DNA of 39,943 bases. It comes from Candidatus Bipolaricaulota bacterium. Lineage in GTDB: Bacteria > Bipolaricaulota > Bipolaricaulia > UBA7950 > UBA9294. Positions 7,201 to 39,943 of this stretch are shown here, one piece after another. The notes below the pieces were generated by a model, which saw only the letters and a program-made list of their open reading frames with translations, was not told where the DNA came from and searched no databases. Location of the stretch: the NCBI GenBank assembly GCA_022711155.1, contig JAKLFO010000002.1:1-39943 (forward strand), in the 5' to 3' direction. Position 1 is the first letter of the stretch; every line of letters begins with the position of its first letter. The translations under genes and the position numbers were made by a program.

Positions 7201-10107
7201 TTGGACCTCTTGAGCGATCTGAACCCGCGGCAGCTCGAGGCCGTTACGCACGCAGACGGCCCTCTCCTCATCGTCGCCGGCGTGGGTACCGGGAAGACCA
7301 CGGTGATCACGCGTCGCGTCGCGTGGCTCATCGCAGAGAAGCGGGTTCGCCCGGCGGAGATCCTCGCCCTCACGTTCACGGACAAGGCGGCGGCCGAGAT
7401 GGAGGAGCGCGTCGACCGTCTCGTGCCGTACGGCTACGTCGAAGCGAACATCGGGACGTTCCACTCGTTCTGCGATCGCCTGTTGCGCGAGAACGCCGTG
7501 CTCCTCGGCTTGGCCCCCGACTACCGCATTCTGACCGAGGCGGAGCAGGCGATCTTCCTCAAGGAGCACCTGTTCGACCTCCCGCTGCGCCGCTTTCGCC
7601 CCCTGGGAAACCCTCTTCACAGCCTGAACGCCATCCTCGCCCTGTTCTCCCGCGCCAAGGACGAGGACGTCACGCCCGGCGACTACGCCGCTTACGTCGG
7701 GGCGCGCGCGCACCAGGCTGCGGCCGCCGGAGCTGAGGCGGAGTTCGCCGACGAGACGGAACGCCAAGCCGAGCTGGCCGAGACGTACGCCGCGTACCAG
7801 GCGCTGCTCGCGCGGCACGGCTTCGTCGACTTCGGCGACCTCATCACGCTCTCGTTGCGCCTCCTCCGCGAGCAGCCGGGCGTCCTCGCCCGCGTCCAGC
7901 GCCGATACCGCGCGATTCTCGTCGACGAGTTTCAGGACACGAACTACGCCCAGTTCGAGCTGGTACGCCTCCTGGCTGCGAACAGGAACATCACGGCGTG
8001 CGGTGACGACGACCAGTCGATCTACAGGTTCCGCGGCGCGGCTATCTCCAACATCCTCGGGTTCCAGGACGCGTATCCCGACGCTGACCTCGTCGTGCTG
8101 GAGGAGAACTACCGCTCGACCCAGGAGATCCTCGACGCGGCGTATCGGCTCATCCAGAACAACAACCCGGACCGACTCGAGGTGCGAAGCTCGATCTCGA
8201 AGAGGCTGCGCGCCGCCTCGGGCGCGGGGCGCCCGCCCCGTCAGATCCACTTCGCGACCCAGGACGAAGAGGCGGACTTCGTCGCGGCGGAGATCCGCGA
8301 GCGCCACGACCGCGAGTCGCGCCGCTACTCGGACTTCGCGATCCTCGTGCGTTCCAACGCGGCAGCGACGAACTTCCTGCGCGCACTCAACATGTCCCAC
8401 GTCCCTTGGCGCTTCTCCGGGAGCCGCGGGCTCTACGACCAGGAGGTAGTCCGCGCGGCGATCGCCTTCCTGCGCGTGCTCGCCGACCCGCGCGACGACA
8501 TGTCGCTCCACTACCTCGCCAGCTCGCCCCTGTACAACCTCGACCCCGAGGTACTCGCCCGCGCCGCGGCCCACGCTCGGGGGCAGCACGTCCCTCTCCT
8601 CGACCTCCTGCGCTCGACGCGCGGCGGGCCGTCGCCGTTCCCCATCGGAGCGGACGACGACGCCACGGTGTCCCGTCTCGTCGGCGACCTATCCGCGATG
8701 ATCGCCGCGTCGACGCGCGAGCCGACCGGCGAGGTGCTGTACCAGTACCTGTCGACGCAGACGGGGACCATCGAGCGTCTCTCGAACTCGAGCGAGCCGG
8801 CCGACGCGCTCCGCGTCCAGCACCTGGCTCGTCTGTTCTCGGTCGTCGAGCGCTTCAGCGCCGTCGCCCGCTACGACCGCGTCGCCTGGTTCGTCGACTA
8901 CATGGACGCGCTGATCGAGGCGGGCGACAACCCGCCCGTCGGCGACGCCGCGCTCGAGGCCGACGCCGTCCCCGTCATGACCATCCATCAGGCGAAGGGG
9001 CTCGAGTTCCCTGTGGTCTTTCTCGTCGACCTCGTCGCCGGACGCTTCCCGTCGGCCGACCGTCACGATCCGTTGCCGCTTCCGGACGAGCTGCTCAAGG
9101 AGAAGTCGGCCGGCGGAGACTTCCACCGCCAGGAGGAGCGACGGCTCTTCTACGTCGCGATGACCCGGGCGCGCGAAGACGTCTACTTCACGAGCTCCCA
9201 AGACGTGGGCGGGAAGCGCGCGCGCAAGCCGAGCCTGTTCGTGTCGGAAGCGCTCGACCTCGACGCCAGCGAGTTGCGCCTTGCGGCAAGCGAGCCGCTC
9301 GCGCCGGTGAAGCGCCGCGAGCGGGCCACCGCGCCCGAGCCGACGCCCCCTCCTCGCGCCGACGATGGCCAGTTGTCTCTCAGCTTTCGCCAGGTCGACG
9401 ACTACCTCACGTGCCCGCTCCGCTACCGATACGCGCACGTTCTCCGCATCCCCGTGCGCCTGCACCACGCTCTCGTCTACGGGAACGCCGTCCACCAGGC
9501 GATTCGTCTCTACAACCTGAACGCGAGCTCCGGGCGCGCGACGCCGCTTGAGAGCCTCCACGAGGTCTTCCGCAGCCACTGGCGTTCCGAGGGCTTCCTC
9601 ACGCGCCAGCACGAGGAGCTTCGGCTGGCGGAGGGCCTCGAGGCTCTGGCCGCATTCCACGCCCACGAGGAGGCAGAGGCGATCACGCCCGACTACGTCG
9701 AGCGCCGCTTCTCGCTCGTCGACGGCGACCTGCGGCTCGTCGGCGCGTTCGACCGCATCGACCTGCTCGCGTCCGGCGGACGCCTGATCGACTACAAGAC
9801 GTCGTCGCCGCTGTCGCCCGAGGAGGCCGACGCGCGGACGAAGGACAGCCGACAGCTCGCGATCTACTCCCTCGCCTTCGCCCGCCTGTTCGGCCACCTG
9901 CCCGCTTCGGTGGAGCTTCGTTTCCTCTCCCCCACCCTCGTCGTCGGACACGCGACTCCCACGGATCGCACGGTCGACCGAGCGCAGACGGAGATCGATG
10001 AAGTGGCCCACGGGATCCGCTCGGCCGAGTTCCGCGCCGAGCCGACGTACCAGGCGTGCCGGTTCTGCCCGTACGCCGGCCTCTGCCCCTCCCGCCGCGC
10101 CGACTAG
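7201..10107 (+). CDS. UvrD/PcrA-type SF1 helicase fused to a C-terminal PD-(D/E)XK nuclease with a Cas4/AddB-type 4-Cys cluster
   Basis: TTG start at 7201 is preceded by AAGGAG. The N-terminus LNPRQLEAV..AGVGTGKTT carries helicase motif I, with DEFQDT and VMTIHQAKGLEF also present. The C-terminus has C-x(n), FDRID, IDYKTS (D-x-K), QLAIYSL and CRFCPYAGLC (CxxCx5C). Confidence 0.85.
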   Translation: MDLLSDLNPRQLEAVTHADGPLLIVAGVGTGKTTVITRRVAWLIAEKRVRPAEILALTFTDKAAAEMEERVDRLVPYGYVEANIGTFHSFCDRLLRENAVLLGLAPDYRILTEAEQAIFLKEHLFDLPLRRFRPLGNPLHSLNAILALFSRAKDEDVTPGDYAAYVGARAHQAAAAGAEAEFADETERQAELAETYAAYQALLARHGFVDFGDLITLSLRLLREQPGVLARVQRRYRAILVDEFQDTNYAQFELVRLLAANRNITACGDDDQSIYRFRGAAISNILGFQDAYPDADLVVLEENYRSTQEILDAAYRLIQNNNPDRLEVRSSISKRLRAASGAGRPPRQIHFATQDEEADFVAAEIRERHDRESRRYSDFAILVRSNAAATNFLRALNMSHVPWRFSGSRGLYDQEVVRAAIAFLRVLADPRDDMSLHYLASSPLYNLDPEVLARAAAHARGQHVPLLDLLRSTRGGPSPFPIGADDDATVSRLVGDLSAMIAASTREPTGEVLYQYLSTQTGTIERLSNSSEPADALRVQHLARLFSVVERFSAVARYDRVAWFVDYMDALIEAGDNPPVGDAALEADAVPVMTIHQAKGLEFPVVFLVDLVAGRFPSADRHDPLPLPDELLKEKSAGGDFHRQEERRLFYVAMTRAREDVYFTSSQDVGGKRARKPSLFVSEALDLDASELRLAASEPLAPVKRRERATAPEPTPPPRADDGQLSLSFRQVDDYLTCPLRYRYAHVLRIPVRLHHALVYGNAVHQAIRLYNLNASSGRATPLESLHEVFRSHWRSEGFLTRQHEELRLAEGLEALAAFHAHEEAEAITPDYVERRFSLVDGDLRLVGAFDRIDLLASGGRLIDYKTSSPLSPEEADARTKDSRQLAIYSLAFARLFGHLPASVELRFLSPTLVVGHATPTDRTVDRAQTEIDEVAHGIRSAEFRAEPTYQACRFCPYAGLCPSRRAD

Positions 10108-15764: not shown

Positions 15765-17114
15765 TTACGGTGCGTCCTCGTTGTCCCGCTCGCGGCGGAG
15801 GAAGGTCGGCACGTCCAGGTTCGCGTCGCGAGAGACGCGCTCGCGGCGCACGTGCCGCTTCTCCTCGCGGCCCACGGCCTCCGCCGCCTGGAAACTCGCG
15901 GCGATGATCGTGATCTCGATCTCGCGCCCGGCGTCGGGGCGGACGACGGCCCCGAAGATCAGGTCGCACTCCGTCGCGGTCGCGCGCCGCACGTGATCCG
16001 CAGCCTGGGTCACCTCGCCCAGGGTCAGGTCCTCTCCGCCCGTCACGTTGAGGATCATCTTCCTCGCGCCGCGGATCGAGTCCCCCTCCAAGAGCGGATT
16101 CGTGCTGGCGGCCTTCGCCGCGGCCAGGGCTCGCCCCGGTCCGGAGGCGTGTCCCATGCCCATCATCGCTTCGCCGGCGTTGGCGAGCAGGCTTCGAATG
16201 TCGGCGAAGTCGAGGTTGATCATGCCTCGCACCGTGATGAGATCCGAGATCCCACGGACGCCCTGGTGCAGGATGCCGTCCGCCAGCTCAAACGCCTGGG
16301 TCATCGGCATTCCGCGCGCCGCCGTCTGGAGCAGGCGATCGTTCGACACGACAATCAGCACATCGGCCGCGGCGCGCAACGAAACGAACCCGCGCTCCGC
16401 GTTCGCCGTGCGCGTGGCCCCCTCGAAGGCGAAGGGGCGCGTCACGACGCCGATCGTGAGAGCGCCGGCTTCGCGCGCGATCTGCGCGATGACCGGAGTT
16501 GCGCCCGTCCCTGTCCCGCCGCCAAGCCCCGCCGTCACAAAGACGAGGTCCGTGTCATGCAGAAGCTTGGAGATCTCCCAGCGCGACTCTTCCGCCGCCC
16601 GCGCGCCCTTCTCGGGGCTGCCGCCGGTGCCGCGTCCCGCCGTGATGTCGACCCCAATCTGAAGCTCCTCGCGCGCCGCCGCCGCCTGGAGAACCTGCTT
16701 GTCCGTGTCGACTGCGACCAATCGGACTCCCGACAGGCGCTCTTCGCGCATCCGCGTGACGGCGTTGACGCCGCCCGCGCCCACGCCGAGCACGACGATG
16801 CGCGCGTGCCCTCCACGTTCCACGGCCTCGCCTCCCCTGGCTTGCTGGACCAGCGGCCGATCTCCCATGACGACTTCCCGATCGCCCAGGACCCGCTCGA
16901 CGACTTCCTGGATCTTGTCAAGCTTGCGAAGGCAGTACTCCTTACGGAAGTCGCTGTCAACCGCGATGTAGAACTGCACCCCGTCGTCGCTCACCGCGCC
17001 GGCATCGATCGGCAAGCAGGCGCGAAGCACGTGGTCCGCGATCCCGTCACGAATCGCCCGCCACGCTCCATGCAGAGGACTCTCGCGCGCCCCGTCCGAT
17101 CGCGTCTCGGCCAT
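15765..17114 (-). CDS. ftsZ: Cell division protein FtsZ with a ~100-aa N-terminal extension
   Basis: Motifs GVGAGGVNAV, the tubulin signature GLGGGTGTGATP, and the C-terminal peptide DVPTFLRR are present. ATG at 17114 has GGGAG 6 nt upstream and a promoter just beyond. The extension shows GC3-rich codon usage like the rest of the gene. Confidence 0.9.
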   Translation of the reverse strand: MAETRSDGARESPLHGAWRAIRDGIADHVLRACLPIDAGAVSDDGVQFYIAVDSDFRKEYCLRKLDKIQEVVERVLGDREVVMGDRPLVQQARGGEAVERGGHARIVVLGVGAGGVNAVTRMREERLSGVRLVAVDTDKQVLQAAAAREELQIGVDITAGRGTGGSPEKGARAAEESRWEISKLLHDTDLVFVTAGLGGGTGTGATPVIAQIAREAGALTIGVVTRPFAFEGATRTANAERGFVSLRAAADVLIVVSNDRLLQTAARGMPMTQAFELADGILHQGVRGISDLITVRGMINLDFADIRSLLANAGEAMMGMGHASGPGRALAAAKAASTNPLLEGDSIRGARKMILNVTGGEDLTLGEVTQAADHVRRATATECDLIFGAVVRPDAGREIEITIIAASFQAAEAVGREEKRHVRRERVSRDANLDVPTFLRRERDNEDAP

Positions 17115-17134
17115 CACGCACTCCCGATCGAGCC

Positions 17135-29594: not shown

Positions 29595-32444
29595 CTAGAG
29601 CGCTTCTTCGTTATCCTCAGGACGACTCGTGAGGATCAGGCACTCCCAGGCCGCCAGGTCGATCTCCAGGGCACCCGCCTGGATCGCACACGCGCGCCCG
29701 GTGAGCCGGTCGGCGGCTGGTCCGTCGGGCAGCGGCACGCGCGCGACGCGCGCTCTCGCCGGCGCGTCGGACGGGTTCGCGACGACGACCACAGCTCTGT
29801 GGCCGTCGGTTCGCGCATAGGCCACCGGCGCGCCGCCGTCCACCGCGAGAACGCGGAACGAAGAGGGATCCGAGTTCGTCACGAGATCGGCCAGTTCCAA
29901 CCGCACGTCGAGGCTGCGCCGGACCGTCTCGAGCGGGCGGGACGCGCGACTCCAGTCGCACGCCCACGGCGCGGTCAAGGGCAACGATTCCGTCGGGTAT
30001 CGGAGCAACTCGTCCGCGGCGAAGTCGAGCCCGGTGTTCACGGGCTGCGTCTCGCCGAGCTCGAACCCCGCGTGCACGAACGGCATCCCGGGAAGGAAAG
30101 CTCCGAGGACCCAGGCGAGACGTGAACGAGCGACTCCTCCCGAGCGCGCCGCGCAACGCGGCGTGTTGTGGGTTTCCGGGGTGGCGAAGAACGGCAGCGC
30201 AGGGCCGACCTGCGCGAACTGGTCGAGGCCGGCGAGAAACTCGGCGGGGCGGTGGATCGTCCACCACACGCTGCCCATGGCGGCGTTGTACCCCTCCGCG
30301 CGCGACTCCCCGCGCAAGGCGAAGTCCTCATCCCAAAAAGCGAAGTCCGGAGCGACGCTCCGCGTGCCTTCGATGATGCGCCGCTTCAGCTCGCGCGGCA
30401 GCGCGTGTCCCATGTCGATCATCGCCCCATCGATCCCGTACTCGCGCGCGTAGTGCGGCAGTATCCCCGCAACGCGGTCCCACAGCGCGGACACCACGCG
30501 TTCCGGCGTCGCGAGCCGCGCGTCGTACATGCGCACGGTGTTGTAGGCGATGTAGTCGAAGTCCGGATGCGCATAGAGGCGCAGATACGTCACGTCCGAC
30601 CACGGCGGCTGCGTGTCGTCGGGCGGCCAGTCCGCGAACGCACCTGGAATCCTCACGTCCGCGCCTCCCGGCGCGGTGCCAAGATAGCGGACTCCGTCGA
30701 CGCGGATCGTCGATGCCGCCGGAGCCGACAGGAACAGCCGGCGGTACGCGGCGTGCGGCGGCAACAGCTCACCGTAGTCCCCTCGCCCGACCAAGTTCTT
30801 GATCCGCGCGAGTTCGTCGGGCTCGAAGAGCGGGCTCCCGTAGAGCGACTCGTCGGAACTCCCGCCCGGGCGATCACCGGCGTCGGCGCGAACCCAGTAG
30901 AACCAGTCCGGATGCTGCGGCACCCACGCCGAGTCCTTCGCCGCCGTCCGGAACACGAACTCGAGCACCACGCGAATGCCCAACCGGTGCGCGCCCTCGA
31001 CGAAGGCGCGAAGCTCGGCGTCCGGCCCGAGGCCGAGGAGCGGCTCGGCCAGCGTCTCGTCAAGCGAGTATGGATCGCGCATCGCATAGGGCGACCCGAG
31101 CTCTCCCTTCCGCCCGTCCCGCCCGATCGACGCGACGGGTAGGAGGTGGATGACGTTGCAGCCGAGGCTTCGGATGTACGGCAGGAGGGCGATCATCTTG
31201 AGAAACGTCCCCGTCTCCCGCGGCCGGCCGGGCAGACTCGCGAGGGCTCCGTCGCCGTCGTGGTCGAACGCCGCGGCCACGCGCACGAACGCGTTGTAGG
31301 CCAGCGAGTCTCGCGTCCACTCCCCACGATCGCCTGCCACGCGCTCCTCGTGGGGTGAACGCAGGACGCGGTCCACCGCCTCCCGCCAGAAGTCCACGGC
31401 GTCCGTCTCGACGACGCCCGTGCCGCGACCGTAGGGATCGGCCCAGAGCTGGGGAACCCTGTACGAAGCCGCGATGCCCGACCGTTTCATTCGGGCCAGG
31501 CGGTCCGCCACGCGCCGCAGCGCTGCCGTATCCTTCCTCTGCTCGCGCCACGCCGCTACCGGCTCTCTCCCGCGCATCCGCCCCTCCAGTTCGCTCATCC
31601 ACTTCACCCACGCGGGCGTCTTCCTCATCTCCACGAAGTCCCGCACCGCCGTTGAGAACTGCACGTCCTCGCCGAACTCCTCGCGCAAGTAGTAGAGGTG
31701 CTCGACCACCCAAGCGTACAGGTCCGCCTCCGTCCGCCCGGGGAAGGCGCGCAACAGGTTCTCCTCGCGGAAGATCTCCGTCAGCGGACGATAGACGTGG
31801 TCGTACCACGAGACGACCGCCTCGGGATACGCCACGCTCCGCTTCTCCTCGAGGCCGAGATAGTAGCGGTGCACGTCGATGTGCTCGAGAAGCTTCGCGT
31901 AGCCGCCGGGCGACGAGAACTCGATGCGGGCCGCCGGCCGCCGCTCGTCGAGGCGCGTCCGCCGCAGGAACTCGCCGTACTCCGCCTTGGCGAGGAGCGA
32001 CGCGGCGTCCGTCGTCTCATCAATCGGCACTCCGGTGTGGAAAGCGATCACCTCCGCTTCGATCGCCTTCATCCCGAGCTGGCGCGCCACGGACACGCGA
32101 TGATTCCCGTCAAGGACGAAGTAGGCCTCGCCGATCTTGTAGACGCGAATCGGAGCGAAGCCGGAGCCCTCGTCAAACGATCTGCGCACGTGCGCCCAAC
32201 GCTCGCCGAGCGCCCACCGCCTCGGCAGGAACCGCCTGTCGAAATCGTGGTAGCGGTTCACGCTCCCAATGATGTGGTCCAGCGGGATCTCGTGGATCCC
32301 GTCATAGGCCGACGACCCGATGCCGAGCGCGCGCTGCACGAGCGAGAACGGGAGGAGCAGGCTCGGCTTGCCTGTGATGAAGGACATCACGCGGCCCCAT
32401 GCCGCCTTGTGCCATGCGCGCTCGAAGTCGATGTCGCCTGTCAT
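29595..32444 (-). CDS. Fusion protein (949 aa): N-terminal ParB/Srx-like domain, DUF4032-like region, C-terminal GH13 (GlgE/maltosyltransferase-like) alpha-glucan-active domain
   Basis: ATG at 32444 overlaps the upstream stop (ATGA). The ParB-like part is HEIPLDHIIGSV..YFVLDGNHRVSVARQLG (about 32040-32312). The middle part is HRYYLG..VSWYDHVYRPL (about 31620-31997). The GH13 part is VIHLLPVASIGRDGRKGELGSPYA.., LEFVFRTAAKDSAWVPQHPDWFYW, GAMIDMGHA, FWDEDF, FFATPETHN (about 29598-31307). Confidence 0.8.
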   Translation of the reverse strand: MTGDIDFERAWHKAAWGRVMSFITGKPSLLLPFSLVQRALGIGSSAYDGIHEIPLDHIIGSVNRYHDFDRRFLPRRWALGERWAHVRRSFDEGSGFAPIRVYKIGEAYFVLDGNHRVSVARQLGMKAIEAEVIAFHTGVPIDETTDAASLLAKAEYGEFLRRTRLDERRPAARIEFSSPGGYAKLLEHIDVHRYYLGLEEKRSVAYPEAVVSWYDHVYRPLTEIFREENLLRAFPGRTEADLYAWVVEHLYYLREEFGEDVQFSTAVRDFVEMRKTPAWVKWMSELEGRMRGREPVAAWREQRKDTAALRRVADRLARMKRSGIAASYRVPQLWADPYGRGTGVVETDAVDFWREAVDRVLRSPHEERVAGDRGEWTRDSLAYNAFVRVAAAFDHDGDGALASLPGRPRETGTFLKMIALLPYIRSLGCNVIHLLPVASIGRDGRKGELGSPYAMRDPYSLDETLAEPLLGLGPDAELRAFVEGAHRLGIRVVLEFVFRTAAKDSAWVPQHPDWFYWVRADAGDRPGGSSDESLYGSPLFEPDELARIKNLVGRGDYGELLPPHAAYRRLFLSAPAASTIRVDGVRYLGTAPGGADVRIPGAFADWPPDDTQPPWSDVTYLRLYAHPDFDYIAYNTVRMYDARLATPERVVSALWDRVAGILPHYAREYGIDGAMIDMGHALPRELKRRIIEGTRSVAPDFAFWDEDFALRGESRAEGYNAAMGSVWWTIHRPAEFLAGLDQFAQVGPALPFFATPETHNTPRCAARSGGVARSRLAWVLGAFLPGMPFVHAGFELGETQPVNTGLDFAADELLRYPTESLPLTAPWACDWSRASRPLETVRRSLDVRLELADLVTNSDPSSFRVLAVDGGAPVAYARTDGHRAVVVVANPSDAPARARVARVPLPDGPAADRLTGRACAIQAGALEIDLAAWECLILTSRPEDNEEAL

Positions 32445-33079
32445 CCGATCTCCAGCACCTCGTACCCGTAGATCCCCCGCACTTCCGTGTGCCCACAGCA
32501 GACGGGACGCAGATCGATCCCGTACGACGGGTGAATGTGCCCGTGCAGCCACAGCCTGGGGCGCTCTTTCCTGATGAGGTCGACGAACGACTCGAATCCC
32601 CGGTGGCATGGGTCCGCCGCGTCGTGCACGCCTCGCGGGGCGGCGTGGGACACGACGACGCCCAAGCGGGCCCGCTCGGCCAGACCGAGCCAGCGCAGCC
32701 GGGCGCGGGCCCCGCGGACGCGGCGTCCCATCTCCCTCTCGCTGTGCTGGTGGACGCCCCCGCCGTACGCCGCGCTCCCGCCGAAGCCGGCGATCCAGAT
32801 GTCGTCGCCTCTTCGGCCGCGGACGCGCACGACGCGCCCGTCGATCGACCGACCGCCCTCCGGTCCATCACTCACACGCCCATCGGAGCGCATGAGCGCC
32901 CCGTCGTGGTTGCCGAGCACGTACAAGAGCGGCACGCCGAGGCACGTGACGATGTACTCGAGGTACTCGTACGGCAAATCGCCGCATGAGAGGACGAGTT
33001 CCACGCCGGCGCATACCGAACGGATCTCGCGCGAGTAGAGGACCTCGCTCACCGCGTCGCTCACCACGAGCGTCTTCAT
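32441..33079 (-). CDS. Calcineurin-like metallophosphoesterase
   Basis: SCGDLP, GNHDG, SHAAP and GHIHPS motifs are present. The first motif reads SDAVS (Asp present, His absent). There is no SD; the -10 lies 6 nt upstream of the ATG. Confidence 0.8.
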   Translation of the reverse strand: MKTLVVSDAVSEVLYSREIRSVCAGVELVLSCGDLPYEYLEYIVTCLGVPLLYVLGNHDGALMRSDGRVSDGPEGGRSIDGRVVRVRGRRGDDIWIAGFGGSAAYGGGVHQHSEREMGRRVRGARARLRWLGLAERARLGVVVSHAAPRGVHDAADPCHRGFESFVDLIRKERPRLWLHGHIHPSYGIDLRPVCCGHTEVRGIYGYEVLEIG

Positions 33080-33206: not shown

Positions 33207-34364
33207 GTGCGACTCCAGAAGGGCGATCAGGACCTCATTCACCGGCAGAACCGCGCCATCATCATCAACCTATTGCGGCTGAACGGCCCTCTCTCCCGAA
33301 CGGAGATCGCCGAGCGCGCGGGGCTCGCGCCGTCTTGCCTCACCCGTCTCGTTCGCGAGCTCTTGCTGGAAGGCATCGTCGCCGAAATCGGCAAGTCGGG
33401 CTCCAACGGCGGCCGACCGGCCGTGCTCGTCGCCTTGGATCCGAACTACGCCCACACGATCGGGGTGAAGGTCGAACGACGCAGGATCCTCGCCGCGAGC
33501 GTCGATATGAGCGGCACGATCTCCGGGCGCGCGGAAACGCGATTCGAGCAGACGCCGACTCCGAGCGAGGCCATCGCGGCGATCGCGGACCTCACCAGGC
33601 GTCTGAGCGTGGGACGAACCCTGGGGCTCGGCGTGGCCATCTCGGGTTTCGTAGATCCTGTGACGGGCGTCGACCTCTACTCTCCCATCCTCGGGTGGGA
33701 GAACACGCCCTTGCGCGACCCGCTCGCCGCGCAGCTGTCTCTTCCGGTCTGGGTCGAGAACGACGTCAACGCGCTCGCGCTGGCGGAACGCTGGTACGGC
33801 GCAGGACGAAGCTTCCAGCACTTCGTCTGCATCACGGTCGGCGAGGGCATCGGAGCCGGCGTCGTCATTCAGGGGGAGATCTACCGCGGAGCGTTCGGCG
33901 GCGCCGGCGAGCTCGGCCACATCACAATCGACCCCGACGGCCCCGTCTGCCGGTGTCAGGAGCGGGGCTGCCTTGAGGTCTACGCGTCGGATCGATTTCT
34001 CCTCGAGGAGGCTCGTCGCCTCCGTTTCGACGGCATCCCCGAGCTGGCCGCCGCGGCGCGCAACGGCGGAAACGGAGCGCGAGACGCCTTCGCGAGGATG
34101 GGCAAGTTCCTCGGGTTCGGCGCCAAGAACCTGGTCAATCTGCTGAACCCGGAAGCTGTCGTGCTCGGCGGCGAGCGCATGGAGGAAGCGGACCTGTTCC
34201 TGCCTTCCCTGGAAGAGGAGGTGTGCCGACATAGCTTCCCCGCCGAAGCGGAGAAGCTGTGCATCGTCCCCGCAGAGCTAGGTGCCGATGGCTTCCTCAT
34301 CGGCCCTGCCACGCTCGTCGCCGCGGACTTCTTCCGGCTCCCGGCGCGAGGAGGTCTCGGGTGA
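33207..34364 (+). CDS. ROK-family transcriptional regulator (N-terminal wHTH + sugar-kinase-like domain)
   Basis: HTH LSRTEIAERAGLAPSCLTRLVRELL, the ROK zinc motif GHITIDPDGPVCRCQERGCLE, and glycine-rich GEGIGAG are present. Confidence 0.85.
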   Translation: MRLQKGDQDLIHRQNRAIIINLLRLNGPLSRTEIAERAGLAPSCLTRLVRELLLEGIVAEIGKSGSNGGRPAVLVALDPNYAHTIGVKVERRRILAASVDMSGTISGRAETRFEQTPTPSEAIAAIADLTRRLSVGRTLGLGVAISGFVDPVTGVDLYSPILGWENTPLRDPLAAQLSLPVWVENDVNALALAERWYGAGRSFQHFVCITVGEGIGAGVVIQGEIYRGAFGGAGELGHITIDPDGPVCRCQERGCLEVYASDRFLLEEARRLRFDGIPELAAAARNGGNGARDAFARMGKFLGFGAKNLVNLLNPEAVVLGGERMEEADLFLPSLEEEVCRHSFPAEAEKLCIVPAELGADGFLIGPATLVAADFFRLPARGGLG

Positions 34365-36469
34365 CCCTGCGCATCGACATCGACAGCAACGACGCCCTGT
34401 CGGTCCAGAGCGGCGAGGCCGTGCGCGTGACGGACGTCGGCGTCGCGTTCGGCTTCGGCTGCAGCGAGAGCGCCTTGCGGGCCTCACCTTGGGAGGGCTT
34501 TGCGGGATCGGGTGCGAGTGAGGCCCGCTGGACGTTCTCGCGCGCCGTGCGCGATGAGGTTGGAGCCCTGGCGCGGCTGGGGGTTCGCCAGGAGGACGAC
34601 GTCGCGTGGGTGTCCGTGGAACTCGAGAGGGATCTCCACGGACTCGCGGTCGCCGACTCGTTCGATCTGTCCGGCGTCGCCGCGCCGCGTCTGGGCATTC
34701 CCCCCGGATTGCGCGCGCTGTCCGTCAGCTACGGCCTCGGACGCTCCGGCGACGGGCAGATCGGCGGATACTGGCCGGCGGGGCACTCCTCGGCCAGCCA
34801 GTCCCTCCCTCCCGGCGCCTGCGCGCCGCTCGTCCTCCACGATGGCCACGCCGCACTCGCCATCGCTCCTGCCAACCTCTTCTTGACCAGCGCGCTCCTT
34901 CCCACGCAAGGCGGGATCGCCCGCACGCTGCACGGCAGCGTCGACGCGCTTCCAGCGGGAACGCGGATCGAGACGGCCCTCGCGGCCGGCCAGAGCGTCG
35001 AGGAAGCGCTATGGCGTCTCGGAGACGCGCTTCTCGCGCGAGCCGGAAAGGCGCGGCCGTCGCCGGGCGACTCGACGCTCACCTCGACCTTGGGCTGGTG
35101 GAACGCCTACGGGGGCTACTACACGGAACCGATCCGTCCGCTGGACGAGTCACGCCTCGTCGAGGTCATCGAGGCCCTCCGCCGCCAGGCCGTCCCCATC
35201 GGCTACGTCGGGCTTGATCTCTGGTACCCGTACCGCGTGATCGGCCAGGCGTTGCGTTTCGCGCCCGACCGTCGGAAGTACGCGCGCGGCTTCCGCGAGA
35301 TCGCAGAGCAGAGCGGGCTCGGCTTCGTCCTCCACCTCTCGGCTCTGTCCGCGGACAACGAGTACCGCACCTCCGGAGACGATGCGTCGTTCTACACCGA
35401 AGTCGCCGCGGAGATCCGCCGCCAGGGGGGGATCGCTGCGTGGCACGACTGGCTCCGCACGCAACAGCACTTGACGCCGACCCTGCGCTCCGATCCAGCG
35501 GCCGCCGAACGCTGGTTCGGCGGCATGTCGACGGCCCTCGAGCGCGAAGGCCTCGAGCTTCTCCTCTGCATGCAGACGATGGGCATGGTCCTCGCAGCGA
35601 CCGCGCGGCCGAACATCGTCGCCGCGCGGACGGCGATCGACTACTTGTTCGGCCAACCGGAAGCGCTCGACACGCTGGAGACGCTCGGCTTTGGCGGGTT
35701 CAAGGCTGATGCGACGCCGATCGGCCAGCTGCGGCGGCAGAACCTCCTCTTGGGCTCCGTGCTCCAGTCGCTCGGCCTGCTCCCGTTCCACGACCTCTTC
35801 TTGACGCGGCCCCAGGAGGGCCTCGGAGGCGCGAGCCCGCGCGCCGAGGCGGTCTTGCGCGCCCTCTCCTGTGGGCCCGTGGGCATCGGCGACGGCCCGG
35901 CCGGCACGGACACGGATCTCATCGCGAGCCTCGTGTCGAGGCGGGGCAAGCTCCTGCACCCGGACCACGCGCCGTTCCCGACGCCCGACTCGCTCGGGCT
36001 CGACGTGGAGATCTACGAGACAGCGCGCGTCGCCGACGCCGAGCGCTGGCGGTACGTCGTGGCGCTGAACACGAGTGCTCGCGCCGCTTCGTTCTCCGTC
36101 CCGCACGAACGAGAGGAATCCGTCATCTGGGACGCCTTGGGCAGGCGGATCGTCCCCACGATGGAGGGCGCCCTGGCTCCGGGGGAGATCGCGTACTACG
36201 TGGTCGCTCCTCTGCGAGGCGGAATCGCCCCCATCGGCCTCACGGACAAGCTGGTCCCCGCCCCGGCGGGCGTCCTGACGTCGGCTGAAGCTGACGGGGT
36301 CTGGCGTCTCGCTCTGGACGCGCCCGGCGAACGCTTCGCATTCTGGTCAAAGGAGACTCCGGAAGTGCGCGCGGACGGGCGTCACGTCCTGCCCACGCGC
36401 AGGGAGTCGGATCTGTGGATCGTCGAAGTCCCGCAGGCGGCCTCGCTGTCGGTGGCCGCCGGGAGGTGA
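34361..36469 (+). CDS. Uncharacterised 702-aa protein, distantly GH36 / raffinose-synthase (Sip1)-like TIM barrel (clan GH-D) by block order
   Basis: GTG at 34361 (GTGA overlap with the ROK stop) has GAGGAGG upstream. The blocks run LGWWNAYGG, VGLDLWY, GIAAWHDW, LLLCMQ, AIDYLF, LPFHDLF, AEAVLRALSCGPVGIGD, GKLLHPD..PTPD. This order mirrors GH36/Sip1 conserved blocks as I remember them. There is no signal peptide. Confidence 0.55.
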   Translation: MTLRIDIDSNDALSVQSGEAVRVTDVGVAFGFGCSESALRASPWEGFAGSGASEARWTFSRAVRDEVGALARLGVRQEDDVAWVSVELERDLHGLAVADSFDLSGVAAPRLGIPPGLRALSVSYGLGRSGDGQIGGYWPAGHSSASQSLPPGACAPLVLHDGHAALAIAPANLFLTSALLPTQGGIARTLHGSVDALPAGTRIETALAAGQSVEEALWRLGDALLARAGKARPSPGDSTLTSTLGWWNAYGGYYTEPIRPLDESRLVEVIEALRRQAVPIGYVGLDLWYPYRVIGQALRFAPDRRKYARGFREIAEQSGLGFVLHLSALSADNEYRTSGDDASFYTEVAAEIRRQGGIAAWHDWLRTQQHLTPTLRSDPAAAERWFGGMSTALEREGLELLLCMQTMGMVLAATARPNIVAARTAIDYLFGQPEALDTLETLGFGGFKADATPIGQLRRQNLLLGSVLQSLGLLPFHDLFLTRPQEGLGGASPRAEAVLRALSCGPVGIGDGPAGTDTDLIASLVSRRGKLLHPDHAPFPTPDSLGLDVEIYETARVADAERWRYVVALNTSARAASFSVPHEREESVIWDALGRRIVPTMEGALAPGEIAYYVVAPLRGGIAPIGLTDKLVPAPAGVLTSAEADGVWRLALDAPGERFAFWSKETPEVRADGRHVLPTRRESDLWIVEVPQAASLSVAAGR

Positions 36470-36474
36470 GTCGC

Positions 36475-39399
36475 GTGAAGAAGTGGGTGGTCGTCTCTCT
36501 CAGCGTCGTCCTCGTGGGCCTCGGCCTCTCGCAGCCCGGCTTCGCCGCCGGAGCAGACAAGGCGCCGCTCAATCTGGCCATCGTCTGGCACCAGCACCAG
36601 CCGCTCTACTGGAACCGACTGACGAGCGAGTACGAGCTCCCGTGGGTCCGCGTGCATGCCGTACAGGAGTACATCGACTCGGCCCGCATCTCCGCCGAGT
36701 ACCCGGACGTGCATGTCACGTTCAACCTCCAGCCCAGTCTGCTGTGGCAACTTGAGGACTACGCCTCGATCCGCCCCGAGGAAGCGTCGCGCGGCGGGCT
36801 CTACGAGATCGTGGGCGCCGTCGACAACCACCTCCGCTGGGTGTGGGCACTCGCCCACGATCCCGCCGCGCTCTCCGCGGAAGATAGGGCACGGTTGGAG
36901 GATCAGGATTTCTGGATCAACGGCTACATGCTCGCCGACACCGCAGCCGACCCCTATTTCGATGGACGGTATGCAGAACTGAACCGGCTTCACAACGAGC
37001 GCGACCTGACAGACCAGGAGCTCCTCGACGCATCGGCCCTCTTCCTCTTGTGGCAGATCTCGCCGGAGCTCCACGAGGAGCTCGGCCTCCTGCGCTATCG
37101 CTCGCACACTGGGTTCACGTGGGACGACGTCGCGGCGCTCCTGCGCGGGCAGATGACCGTGATCGGCCGCGTCGTTGATGCGTACAAGATGGCAAGCGAC
37201 CTGGGGAACGAACTCATCACGAGCCCGTTCTATCACCCGATCCTTCCCCTTCTCGCGGCGCGCGGCTACGAAGCGGACGCCCTCGGGCAGATGGAGCAGG
37301 CGCAGGCACAGCACGCCGAGCTGCTCGGAGCCCGCGCGACAGGAGTCTGGTCTCCAGAGCAGGCGGTGTCCGACGGGTCGCTGGCGCTGCTCGCGCAGGC
37401 CGGCTTCCGCTGGACGTCGGCCGACGAGGGCATCCTCGCTCAGGCCCTCGGGCACACGCCGACGCTGGCCGAGCTGACGCAGATCTACGAGAGCCAGGGC
37501 ATGAACGTCTTCTTCCGCGAGACAGGCGTCTCCAACGACATCAGCTTCGCGTACGGCAACAAGGGCACCGACGTCGCGGTCGCCGACTTTCTGGCCAAGC
37601 TGCGCGTCGCATACGACGAGCTCGACGACCCATCCCAGCACGTCTTCACGGTGGCGGTCGACGGCGAGAACTGGATGTTCATGGCCGGGTACCCGAACAA
37701 CGGCCGCGACTTCCTCCGCGCCCTCTACACCGCCATTGCCGCCTGCGATTGGGTGAAAACCGTGACGCCGACGGAAGCGCTCGCGACGATCGAGGCGCGG
37801 GCGCACATCGCCTCGATGCCGACGGGATCTTGGGCGGGCGACCTCTCCACCTGGTCGGGCGAGGTCGAAGAGGACCAGGCGTGGGAGGAGCTCGGGCTGG
37901 CGCGCTCGGCCGTGACCCGCGCCGGCGACCCGGCCTCCGCCCTCGACGCGATCTACGCCGCGGAGGGCTCCGACTGGTTCTGGTGGTACGGGACCGACCA
38001 AGACTCGAACACCGACGACATCTATGACTGGCTCTTCAAGGCGCATCTCGTAGGCGCCTACGAAGCATCGGGTACGCCGGAGGCCGACGTCCCGGACGTC
38101 CTTTCGTTGCGGCTCGTCTTGCCGGCCCCGGCCAGCCTCGGCGAGGTCGCGCCGGCCGTAGACGGCGTCGTGGCGTCCGGGGAAGGTTGGGCGGACGCCG
38201 CGACGGTCTCCGGATCGGGCGACCTGGTCTCCCTCTCGGTGGGCTACAAGGAGACGAACCTCTACGTGCTGGTGACGACTGCCTCCGCCCCGTCGAGCTG
38301 GATCGGACAGGATCTGTACTTGACGCTCTACGCGTCCGGACAGCCCGGCGCGGCCGCCAACGTGGCCACCAAGCTGACCGGCACGTCGCTCGGGTTCGCG
38401 CTCGCGTCGGCGATGCAGTTCAACTTCTCCAAGCTCGACGCGCAGGGCGTCGGCGTCGTTTCCAAGTACGCGGCCGACGGACACGGCGGATGGACGTACG
38501 CATCGAGCATCCGCACGACGGGCGATCGTCGGGCCGCAGCCGCGACGCACATCGAGTTCTCGGTCCCGTTCTCGGAGCTTGGCGTCGAGCCCGGCAAGAC
38601 GGTCACCTTGGCCGCCGTGCTCGAGACGAAAGACGCCTTGCTCGGTCGGGCTCCCGCACGGCCGATGCTGGCATCCATCCCGACGCTGATTCGCGGCGTC
38701 GAGCGCTTCGTCGTCGCCGACCCGGCGGGCGACGACCATGGCGCGGGCACGCTGACCTACCCGACGAACGCCGTCTTCTCCACCGAAGGGATCTTCGATC
38801 TCCAGAGCTACAGCGTCTACGACGCCGGCACGGCTTGGCAGATGGCGTTCGACTTCGCCGCCCTTCCGAACCCTTGGACGGGCCCGCTCGGATTCAGCTT
38901 CCCGCTCCTCTACCTCTACTTCGACGTTGCCGAGGGCGGCTCCGCCGCCTCGCACCCGGAGGGAGAGGCCGCGCAGGTCGCCTTTGCGCCGCAACACGCG
39001 TGGGATGCGTTTGTGCGCGTCGCCGGGTGGCCGGCCTACGGCCGCCACATGTGGACCGCGGCCGGAGAAGGCCCCTTCCTTGTAGAGGTCGCGAGCGACC
39101 CGAAGCGCGGGCGGATCATCGTTACGATTCCCAAGTCGCTCCTGCCGGAGATCGAGGGCTGGCACTACGTCCTCGTCGGCTCGCAGGACGGCTACGGACA
39201 GAACTACCTTCGCTCCGTCGGGGCGACGGCTGGAGAGTGGGTCGGAGGCGGGAGCCCCGCCCCCGGGTGGGCCCCGGCGATCTACGACTACATCGCGCCA
39301 GACGGGGCGTCGCAGGAATCGATCCTCGCGTCGTTCAACGCGGCCGCGGGAGCGTACGCGGAGCTGCAGCCAATCCATGTCACATTCGACTCGCCATAG
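36475..39399 (+). CDS. Secreted GH57-family alpha-glucan hydrolase (amylopullulanase-like) with middle beta-rich module and C-terminal glucodextranase-type domain
   Basis: GTG at 36475 follows GGGAGG. The signal peptide reads VKKWVVVSLSVVLVGLGLSQPGFAA|GADK. GH57 motifs are WHQHQPLYW, TFNLQPSLL, WSPEQAVS (Glu), VAVDGENW (Asp) and SDWFWWYG. The C-terminal DPAGDDHGAGTLTYPTN..FDL..Y resembles glucodextranase domain C. Confidence 0.85.
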   Translation: MKKWVVVSLSVVLVGLGLSQPGFAAGADKAPLNLAIVWHQHQPLYWNRLTSEYELPWVRVHAVQEYIDSARISAEYPDVHVTFNLQPSLLWQLEDYASIRPEEASRGGLYEIVGAVDNHLRWVWALAHDPAALSAEDRARLEDQDFWINGYMLADTAADPYFDGRYAELNRLHNERDLTDQELLDASALFLLWQISPELHEELGLLRYRSHTGFTWDDVAALLRGQMTVIGRVVDAYKMASDLGNELITSPFYHPILPLLAARGYEADALGQMEQAQAQHAELLGARATGVWSPEQAVSDGSLALLAQAGFRWTSADEGILAQALGHTPTLAELTQIYESQGMNVFFRETGVSNDISFAYGNKGTDVAVADFLAKLRVAYDELDDPSQHVFTVAVDGENWMFMAGYPNNGRDFLRALYTAIAACDWVKTVTPTEALATIEARAHIASMPTGSWAGDLSTWSGEVEEDQAWEELGLARSAVTRAGDPASALDAIYAAEGSDWFWWYGTDQDSNTDDIYDWLFKAHLVGAYEASGTPEADVPDVLSLRLVLPAPASLGEVAPAVDGVVASGEGWADAATVSGSGDLVSLSVGYKETNLYVLVTTASAPSSWIGQDLYLTLYASGQPGAAANVATKLTGTSLGFALASAMQFNFSKLDAQGVGVVSKYAADGHGGWTYASSIRTTGDRRAAAATHIEFSVPFSELGVEPGKTVTLAAVLETKDALLGRAPARPMLASIPTLIRGVERFVVADPAGDDHGAGTLTYPTNAVFSTEGIFDLQSYSVYDAGTAWQMAFDFAALPNPWTGPLGFSFPLLYLYFDVAEGGSAASHPEGEAAQVAFAPQHAWDAFVRVAGWPAYGRHMWTAAGEGPFLVEVASDPKRGRIIVTIPKSLLPEIEGWHYVLVGSQDGYGQNYLRSVGATAGEWVGGGSPAPGWAPAIYDYIAPDGASQESILASFNAAAGAYAELQPIHVTFDSP

Positions 39400-39478
39400 G
39401 GAGGTGGTGTAGAAGAGAGTCAGTCGTCGTCGTGGGTCGGACGGAAAGGCAAGAGACAGTATCAAGGAGGAATCGACC

Positions 39479-39943
39479 ATGAAGCGAGTAACGGTACTAG
39501 TCCTCGGGCTCCTGCTCGTCGCAGGGCTCGCGGCAACGGCCAGCACGGCGGGCAAGCTGTTGATCTGGGCGGACGACACGCGGTTCCCGATCATGCAGAC
39601 GGTCGCGGCGCAGTTCACGGCGGCCTACGGCGTCGAGGTCGAGGTGCAGCAGGTCGGATTCGGCGACATCCGCGGTAACCTCGCGACCGCCGGACCGGCC
39701 GGCGAAGGTCCGGACATTCTGATCGGCGCCCACGACTGGCTGGGCGAGCTCATTCAGAACGGGCTCATTGAGCCGATCGTTCTCCCGACCTCGATGGTCG
39801 CCGCGTTCGACCCCGTGGCGATCGACGCGGCGAGCGTGGACCTGGTGCGCGCGGCGCCCGTCGCGCGCGGCTCGGCGCTGGAGGGGAAGGCGGGCGAGGG
39901 CGACGACAAGTTCGCCGCCCTGCACCCGGAGAGCCGCGGGGAG
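39479..39943 (+). CDS. ABC transporter substrate-binding protein, MalE/maltodextrin-binding-like; 5' part only (runs off the window)
   Basis: Not in the ORF track. ATG at 39479 follows AAGGAGG. My translation is [100 protein letters not shown].., which parallels the MalE N-terminus. The last ~35 residues look less SBP-like. Confidence 0.7.

Follow-up and report, generated by a model that had tools for sequence, protein, structure and literature searches.

A putatively nucleotide-dependent ParB/sulfiredoxin-DUF4032 module, partnered by a metallophosphoesterase and fused to a maltosyltransferase-like GH13 enzyme in Bipolaricaulota

The DNA analysed here, called the window below, is a stretch of 39,943 nucleotides from Candidatus Bipolaricaulota bacterium (contig JAKLFO010000002.1 of assembly GCA_022711155.1), and its gene at positions 29595..32444 of the minus strand encodes a 949-amino-acid (aa) protein in which a ParB/sulfiredoxin-fold domain, a DUF4032-type helical unit and a linker precede a glycoside hydrolase family 13 (GH13) enzyme related to the maltosyltransferase MmtA of Thermotoga maritima. 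Comparison with homologous proteins shows that a pre-existing ParB/sulfiredoxin-DUF4032 module was captured at the N-terminus of the GH13 enzyme in one Bipolaricaulota clade, in which module and enzyme have been kept together, and comparison of gene neighbourhoods shows that the constant partner of the module is a metallophosphoesterase and not a glucan enzyme. We infer that the module and the phosphoesterase would make up a self-contained nucleotide-dependent system. Our tentative interpretation, to which we assign a probability of roughly 0.45 on the strength of sequence comparisons and structural models, is that a nucleotide-dependent accessory or regulatory module has, together with its phosphoesterase, been captured by an MmtA-type maltodextrin/glycogen transferase. 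What appears to be new is the partner of this ParB fold and the fusion in which it occurs, together with a GH13 enzyme that has a putatively non-canonical catalytic set.

The open reading frame (ORF) runs without interruption from an ATG at 32444 to a stop codon at 29595-29597, as seen in the ORF list and the translation. The three-part composition proposed in a preliminary description of this DNA, made from the letters alone, is borne out by the frame itself, by AlphaFold2 (AF2) modelling and Foldseek searches, by a match to Pfam family PF13224 and by a match to the T. maritima enzyme (Protein Data Bank (PDB) entry 1GJU). The longest possible ORF reaches 32609; the start at 32444 is taken as correct because translation begins at the equivalent Met in every homologue compared, a GGAG sequence lies about 8 nt 5' of this ATG, and the start codon forms an ATGA overlap with the TGA that ends the 212-aa phosphoesterase gene upstream. 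Delineation of the whole gene, from the ParB/sulfiredoxin fold through the DUF4032 unit, linker and GH13 enzyme to the stop codon, is further supported by 33 full-length homologue clusters. The protein is probably cytoplasmic because no N-terminal signal sequence is evident. All coordinates of its parts given below refer to the minus strand.

The structure predicted by AF2 for residues 1-310 from a 53-sequence alignment (pLDDT 85.6) comprises an alpha/beta domain covering approximately residues 1-136, followed by an all-helical region. Foldseek searches of the PDB recovered Noc, ParB, KorB, PadC, sulfiredoxin, SbnI and the ParB-like protein 1VK1 of Pyrococcus, with probabilities of 0.99-1.0 for the top six. 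Among the matches are Noc 7OL9 (E 2e-4), ParB 7BNK, SbnI 5UJD and sulfiredoxin 6KY4 (target-normalised TM 0.67, rmsd 3.3 Å). Together with sub-threshold profile matches, the model confirms a predicted ParB/sulfiredoxin fold for residues 1-136 (32037..32444), including a conserved N-terminal helix (residues 2-24). The fold was shown through structure prediction because Pfam and NCBIfam hidden Markov models (HMMs) gave no ParB match, so that the ParB/sulfiredoxin signature read from the letters in the preliminary description stands by structure and fails by HMM. No ParB signature was found in the fusion protein by the NCBIfam models, and a profile of the whole module gave no PDB match at E<=10. 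One relative (P0153) has a precomputed match to Pfam ParBc (PF02195).

The profile alignments place the sequence DGNHR (residues 112-116; 32097..32111) on GERR of ParB and DGVHR of SbnI. It corresponds to Box II, or P-motif (GxxR), of this fold, and in the 53 aligned sequences, fused proteins included, D112, G113, H115 and R116 never vary, while conservation of N114 is at least 90 %. A second segment, GSVNRYHDFDRRFLP (residues 60-74; 32223..32267), forms a family-specific loop of the ParB-like domain in which alignment shows G60, S61, R64, Y65, F68, D69, F72 and P74 to be invariant, and besides GxxR the module holds, fused proteins again included, about 25 further invariant residues. GxxR is the Box II phosphate-binding motif of the ParB-CTPase fold, and ParB folds are nucleoside triphosphate (NTP)-dependent switches that are widely fused to other domains (PMC12704722). 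It is plausible that the module binds a nucleotide, because GxxR is invariant and the predicted fold is that of ParB and sulfiredoxin.

Fold and Box II GxxR are common to the module and to ParB, Noc, KorB, PadC, sulfiredoxin, SerK and SbnI. The module differs from these proteins in continuing into a DUF4032 unit and in being paired with a metallophosphoesterase. The catalytic Cys in the GCHR motif of sulfiredoxin is replaced by Asn114, and the free-serine kinases SerK and SbnI have the DGxHR motif in common with the module, but the overall profile match is at E ~1. Unlike the canonical ParB DNA clamp, the module comes without a helix-turn-helix (HTH) domain, a dimerisation domain or a ParA partner: Pfam detected neither an HTH nor the ParB C-terminal dimerisation domain in the fusion protein, and no parA was found in the conserved neighbourhood of the loci examined. 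A ParB + DUF4032 architecture goes unmentioned in a 2025 survey of fusions involving the ParB fold, which drew on PF02195.

Further along the protein lies a single all-helical unit of the DUF4032 type (residues 147-275; 31620..32006), delineated by Pfam and the AF2 model. PF13224, the family named in the preliminary description, matches residues 185-272 above its cut-off of 23.8 bits (25.2 bits with the full protein and 28.5 bits with the N-terminus) and is matched by all 26 relatives scanned. Modelled alone (residues 139-295), the unit reached a pLDDT of 89.8. Its invariant polar and aromatic residues are E187, H188, H192, R193, W213, D215, Y218, D241, Y243 and W245. Assignment to HTH, TetR, DinB-like or other known helical folds was considered and found unsupported, Foldseek returning no credible match. 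Pfam detected no carbohydrate-binding module in the N-terminal part, and a literature search found no papers mentioning DUF4032. The linker (residues 276-312; 31509..31619) has low pLDDT in the model, is conserved among fused homologues and contains the translation start of module-less relatives.

The phosphoesterase gene (32441..33079, minus strand) encodes a protein of 212 aa and is translationally coupled to the fusion gene via the ATGA overlap; it was identified by Pfam, family alignment and locus comparison. The Pfam Metallophos match (E 1.7e-7; 32.3 bits against a cut-off of 21.5) is accompanied by weak profile relationships (E 2e-3 to 0.1) to the RNA-lariat debranching enzyme Dbr1, MPPED2 and LpxH, with no NCBIfam match and no useful PDB sequence match. 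The metal-binding motifs of these calcineurin-like enzymes (GD, GNH, H and GHxH) are kept, motifs II-V being invariant among the 28 members aligned (CGD, GNH, H145 and HGH), whereas in motif I (DxH) the Asp is retained and the His is absent from all 28. The gene lies directly 5' of the module in the window and in all six other loci that carry the module with GH13 (L003-L007, L099, L101), and it is also found upstream in stand-alone Chloroflexota loci. Among the genome loci that could be assessed, the phosphoesterase is adjacent to the module in 37 of 63, directly upstream in 30 and convergent just downstream in 7; by form, adjacency was seen in 30 of 39 loci whose module lacks universal-stress-protein (USP) domains and in 7 of 24 loci with USP forms. 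In the reciprocal comparison, seeded with the phosphoesterase, the module was adjacent in 44 of 64 assessable metagenome loci, giving adjacency in 59-69 % of assessable loci in the two comparisons.

The fusion is one member of a much larger module family. A search with residues 1-300 yielded 2,417 proteins, mostly stand-alone ones of 410-455 aa, chiefly from Anaerolineales, that consist of the ParB domain and two tandem DUF4032 units, and an exhaustive profile search gave 5,558 clusters at 50 % identity. The module is encoded in at least 596 species genomes, overwhelmingly of Chloroflexota, the cultured Bellilinea caldifistulae among them, and some of Bipolaricaulota. Architectures were classified for the 148 best-scoring clusters of 150 listed, with the GH13 fusion represented by P0005 only, outside the 148. 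In 88 of these clusters the ParB domain and one or more units are followed by tandem USP domains, in five variants; 36 have the ParB domain and a unit only, 12 the ParB domain with two or three units, and two (P0365 and P0376) the ParB domain, a unit and an unmatched C-terminus of about 350 residues. One cluster (P0343) is a triple fusion of phosphoesterase, ParB domain with unit, and USP, and the remaining nine are fragments without the ParB domain or carry other unmatched C-terminal extensions. The C-terminus of P0365 is an AXE1/DLH-like alpha/beta hydrolase according to Pfam, and P0376, with the same layout, is annotated at its source as 'dienelactone hydrolase'.

Over residues 1 to about 280 the fusion protein is 40-47 % identical to the stand-alone Chloroflexota proteins of 410-455 aa, annotated as 'DUF4032 domain-containing' or 'ParB-like nuclease family', and to USP-fused relatives of about 580 aa. 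The invariant residues and the upstream phosphoesterase are the same in these relatives; a second DUF4032 unit or tandem USP domains stand in place of GH13 in the relatives, and their loci are not glucan loci. An MmtA-like GH13 gene was found near the module in none of 80 genome loci, and all-against-all ORF clustering of these loci revealed no recurrent neighbour beyond the phosphoesterase, the next family occurring in at most 7. Two Chloroflexota loci (L008 and L009) have the phosphoesterase-module cassette near genes for LytR_cpsA_psr, Polysacc_synt_3, Bac_transf, a LMW phosphatase and GFO_IDH_MocA; the clustering of the 80 loci did not uphold an association with envelope polysaccharides as general. 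A role in anti-phage defence was also considered and rejected: PADLOC gave a trivial GlgB-like match for GH13 and a weak PDC-S10 match for the phosphoesterase, and nothing for stand-alone modules.

The remainder of the fusion protein (residues 313-949; 29598..31508) is a maltosyltransferase-like GH13 enzyme, as indicated by Pfam and by phmmer comparison with PDB sequences. Residues 313-896 match residues 6-606 of MmtA (1GJU/1GJW) with an E of 1.4e-79 over 584 residues, whereas the match to GlgE (4U33) is confined to residues 411-516 (about 106 residues, E 3e-8); 4GKL and 3DHU match the GH13 part at E 1e-15 to 1e-16. The MmtA match being far longer and stronger, the GlgE-like assignment of the preliminary description is not upheld. 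GlgE (GH13_3), likewise a maltosyl-transferring enzyme, has the RKG...GSPYA and region I neighbourhood in common with the fusion but no full-length similarity, and no GlgE family model appears among the NCBIfam matches of the fusion protein. The treS/pep2 context of GlgE was not found either: a Pfam scan of the 22 main ORFs of the window turned up neither gene, in agreement with the preliminary reading. Pfam Alpha-amylase is matched at 27.1 bits (cut-off 22), with a further weak match to hDGE_amylase and matches to C-terminal amylase domains; recognition of the barrel by Pfam and NCBIfam is weak and limited to its first third.

The barrel and the motifs quoted for it in the preliminary description are present (RKGELGSPYA at 445, EFVFRT at 495, AMIDMGH at 674, WDEDF at 704 and ETHNTPR at 757), and the enzyme is collinear with MmtA over about 590 residues. 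In region II (M675-I676-D677; 30414..30422) the nucleophile Asp677 aligns with Asp385 of 1GJU and Met675 with Arg383, in accordance with the replacement of Arg by Met read earlier from AMIDMGH, and in region III the putative general acid/base E706 (30327..30329) aligns with Glu414. Region IV (E757-T-H759-N760; 30165..30176) aligns residue for residue with Glu465-Thr-Pro-Asp468 of 1GJU and with ENHD of 4GKL, and the third carboxylate position is therefore Asn760, in place of the transition-state-stabilising Asp, and not the Glu of ETHN, to which it had been assigned. The lack of the Asn-His pair in region I was read correctly and extends to the T. maritima enzyme (EFVFRT and DFIPRT, respectively). 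Thus, the GH13 part has in common with MmtA the Asp and His of region II, the Glu of region III and a non-canonical region I (xFxxRT), and differs from it by Met for Arg383, Asn for Asp468 and His for Pro467, all three invariant in the subfamily of the fusion, as well as by an N-terminal extension of 310 residues that MmtA does not have. Both the Arg two residues before the nucleophile and the region IV Asp (NHD) are absent, so that the Arg/Asp/Glu/Asp set is not intact. GlgE retains the canonical Arg/Asp/Glu/Asp. Lys151 of MmtA corresponds to K446 (in RKG) and T314-W-D-D317 to P614-W-S-D617 (PWSD); in the published MmtA structure, Lys151 and residues 314-317 reportedly close the cleft after subsite -2, limiting transfer to maltosyl units. 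The T. maritima maltosyltransferase uses unphosphorylated maltodextrins, not maltose-1-phosphate.

The active site was surveyed in the 120 closest homologues, 32 of them fused; the other 88, which stand alone and measure about 640 aa, come from Bacteroidota, Chlorobiota, Verrucomicrobiota, Lentisphaerota, Chloroflexota and others. Position 675 is Met in 119 and Leu in one; the nucleophile Asp677, the acid/base Glu706 and His-Asn (H759-N760) are each present in all 120, and D677, E706, H680 and H759 are kept in 119-120. The Met/Asn substitutions are family-wide and not peculiar to the fusion, and a literature search found no characterised member of this Met/Asn subfamily. Three stand-alone members read in context adjoin genes for secreted alpha-amylases, GH57-CBM20 proteins, solute-binding proteins with ABC permeases, and MFS transporters. 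By these comparisons the GH13 part belongs to a large sister subfamily of MmtA, as yet uncharacterised, which is under strong selection and embedded in alpha-glucan loci. It is most likely an alpha-1,4-glucan transferase of the MmtA type, most likely acting in the disproportionation of imported maltodextrin or in glycogen remodelling, a role suggested because of the locus context and of relatives adjacent to glgA.

Relatives of the fusion protein document three states of the module and the GH13 enzyme. The fused state comprises 33 clusters of 930-958 aa that are 52-99 % identical, come from NCBI, JGI, ENA and Logan assemblies and include the 1.7-Mb chromosome record CP070725.1 of a metagenome-assembled genome (MAG). 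The order of genes in the fused locus is solute-binding protein, GH57/Glucodextran_C, a ~700-aa protein and ROK, followed by the divergent phosphoesterase and fusion genes. In the split state (L007), the phosphoesterase, a 300-aa module and a 636-aa GH13 protein are encoded by consecutive overlapping genes, and modules of ~300 aa form six clusters with 57-62 % identity to that of the window. In the module-less state, found in a sister lineage with 67-75 % identity, the GH13 protein starts within the linker and its gene directly follows those for glycogen synthase (GT5) and a GalT-like protein. One such locus (L001) still has, at 7788-8054, a degenerate piece of the DUF4032 tail that contains an in-frame stop and is located between glycogen synthase and the GH13 gene that restarts in the linker; another (L179, 5001-7085) has the same order of GalT, glycogen synthase, N-terminally shortened GH13 and POR. 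Accordingly, the survey of orthologues called for in the preliminary description gave a mixed answer, with the fusion found in 33 clusters and the phosphoesterase kept beside the module, and with split and module-less forms present too.

If the fusion is indeed a transferase joined to a nucleotide-dependent accessory or regulatory module, the module would bind, and perhaps turn over, a nucleotide, and together with the phosphoesterase it could serve as a switch tying the activity of the glucan transferase to the nucleotide, energy or stress state of the cell. A possible route would be for NTP to drive the ParB-like domains of an MmtA-type homodimer into engagement; the donor substrate of the transferase would apparently not be made by the module. 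Several observations weigh against this interpretation. None of the 26 members scanned matches Pfam ParBc (PF02195) at E<=0.1, and a profile of the ParB domain met ParB, SbnI and sulfiredoxin in the PDB weakly, below threshold (E ~1) and all on the same motif. For the helical unit, Foldseek found no credible relative in the PDB, the best being TetR (E 1.7, probability 0.15), and nucleotide binding is suggested by the predicted fold and the motif alone. The GH13 domain is without two residues normally required for catalysis, which makes its own activity uncertain, and loss of the module in close relatives shows that it is dispensable for the GH13 gene, a behaviour that would fit regulation and equally a co-located module with an unrelated function.

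The first alternative to be weighed is a GH13 domain that has no catalytic activity and, by binding alpha-glucan, anchors the ParB/DUF4032-phosphoesterase system on glycogen granules or maltodextrin. The domain lacks two of the four residues classically invariant in GH13, Arg being replaced by Met and Asp by Asn, and inactive GH13 homologues are known, namely the heavy chains of amino-acid transporters. We nevertheless regard such an anchor as unlikely: strict conservation, in 119-120 of the 120 homologues, extends to the nucleophile and acid/base, to both His and to the residues that close subsite -2, and the Met and Asn are themselves invariant, a pattern that points to a selected active site and not to decay. 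Moreover, the three stand-alone members read in context hold the position of the intracellular maltodextrin-processing enzyme in starch loci.

A second possibility, close to the preliminary description, is that the ParB-like domain is a small-molecule kinase making an activated donor such as maltose-1-phosphate, with which a GlgE-like, non-hydrolytic GH13 enzyme elongates glucan. ParB-fold small-molecule kinases exist, namely SerK (PMC5120207) and SbnI. The alignment of DGNHR with DGVHR of SbnI would suit this idea, as would the automatic JGI annotation of several homologues as 'starch synthase (maltosyl-transferring)', and the Met/Asn substitutions could reflect reliance on an activated donor. 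In canonical GH13 enzymes, the substituted Arg and Asp positions contact the sugar in subsite -1. All the same, a kinase or activation step feeding the GH13 enzyme is unsupported and in our judgement improbable, since the identical Met/Asn active site occurs in 88 stand-alone enzymes without any kinase-like module, the close relatives at 67-75 % identity have lost the module and kept the GH13 enzyme intact, and the module is promiscuous, occurring for the most part by itself or joined to USP domains and at a distance from any GH13 gene. The limited match to GlgE (E 3e-8) beside that to MmtA (E 1e-79), whose substrate is unphosphorylated, and the lack of treS and pep2 among the window ORFs scanned point the same way, and a co-transcribed phosphoesterase would tend to undo the product of a kinase.

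Equally improbable, in our view, is a module that acts as a localisation or scaffolding device, binding DNA, membrane or protein in the manner of ParB and Noc, without chemistry relevant to the glucan. Its best structural matches are indeed DNA- and membrane-binding clamps (Noc, ParB and KorB), the N-terminal helix is conserved, and the C-terminal cargo varies among USP domains, a hydrolase and GH13. Against this stand the failure to detect an HTH or a ParB C-terminal domain, a helical unit without a DNA-binding structural match, invariant residues (E187, H188, H192, R193, W213, D215, Y218 and D241) that resemble a ligand-binding or catalytic site, and the dedicated phosphoesterase partner, which argues for chemistry.

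By analogy with plant glucan-water dikinase and SEX4, or with laforin, one might also envisage a cycle in which the ParB-like domain places phosphate on the glucan chain and the phosphoesterase takes it off again, opening glycogen or maltodextrin to the transferase. A kinase-capable fold with an invariant GxxR, a dedicated and translationally coupled phosphoesterase, and the physical joining of the module to a glucan-binding enzyme within a glucan locus would all be accommodated by such a cycle, which we nevertheless hold to be very unlikely. The core system does not appear to be glucan-specific, given that none of the 80 loci has an MmtA-like GH13 gene near the module or another recurrent neighbour; fusions to USP domains and to an alpha/beta hydrolase misfit a glucan kinase, and the N-terminal part shows no carbohydrate-binding module. 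There is an even slimmer chance that the ParB/sulfiredoxin-DUF4032 protein and the phosphoesterase form a new nucleotide-dependent phosphotransfer/phosphohydrolase pair that in Bipolaricaulota reversibly phosphorylates glycogen or maltodextrin, with the Met/Asn GH13 enzyme adapted to the modified substrate; if true, the glucan-phosphate cycle of plants and animals would thereby gain its first counterpart in bacteria. Finally, an assembly or gene-calling artefact joining two separate genes, for which one might invoke the split (L007) and module-less (L001, L179) versions, can practically be dismissed in view of the uninterrupted frame, the conserved linker and the 33 independent full-length clusters from several assembly sources, including CP070725.1, which also refute the notion that the two genes are always separate in relatives, the occurrence of fused, split and module-less forms therefore excluding an assembly error.

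Upstream of the phosphoesterase and divergent from it, the window holds a conserved block of alpha-glucan utilisation genes (33207..39943, plus strand), identified by Pfam and arranged in the same order in three other loci (L003, L004 and L005); the 5' part of the block is also present in the shorter contig L007. The block consists of a ROK regulator (33207-34364), a conserved ~700-aa protein (34259-36469, with a probable start near 34379), a 994-aa GH57 + Glucodextran_C protein (36415-39399) and the start of a gene for a solute-binding protein (39479 onwards), all on the plus strand and, except for the second, assigned by Pfam. The ~700-aa protein matched neither a Pfam family at E<=0.001 nor any PDB sequence. 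It lies between the ROK and GH57 genes in every Bipolaricaulota locus examined, and one orthologue has a faint match to Raffinose_syn (GH36-like), so it may be an uncharacterised glycoside hydrolase. The GH57 + Glucodextran_C (SLH-like) protein is probably a cell-surface starch-degrading enzyme feeding the locus.

Elsewhere, the window has an even G+C content (~0.67-0.71 throughout) and ordinary chromosomal genes, including those for seryl-tRNA synthetase, FtsZ, RuvB, TldD/PmbA and 2-oxoacid:ferredoxin oxidoreductase, and the nearest relatives of the 949-aa protein come from Candidatus Bipolaricaulota MAGs. The FtsZ ORF (15765-17117, minus strand) has about 105 residues before the tubulin domain, which probably reflects an over-extended start in the mechanical ORF call. 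A 968-aa fusion of a UvrD-type helicase and a PD-(D/E)XK nuclease (AddA/PcrA-like), encoded at 7201-10107 of the plus strand, is apparently unrelated to the system described here.

The findings extend the ParB-CTPase/sulfiredoxin fold by a large, phylum-wide family and by a fusion to a metabolic enzyme, and they identify for this module family a clear partner that lends itself to testing, namely a dedicated phosphoesterase, in many cases accompanied by USP domains. They also delineate a widespread GH13 subfamily, found in starch and glycogen loci of several phyla, that invariably does without the 'invariant' Arg and the third catalytic Asp. Activity of the Met/Asn subfamily would mean that what textbooks require for catalysis in clan GH-H has to be qualified; inactivity would mean that many metagenome annotations as 'alpha-amylase' or 'GlgE' are wrong. 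The naturally occurring fused, split and module-deleted forms in one clade offer a ready-made experiment on the effect of the module.

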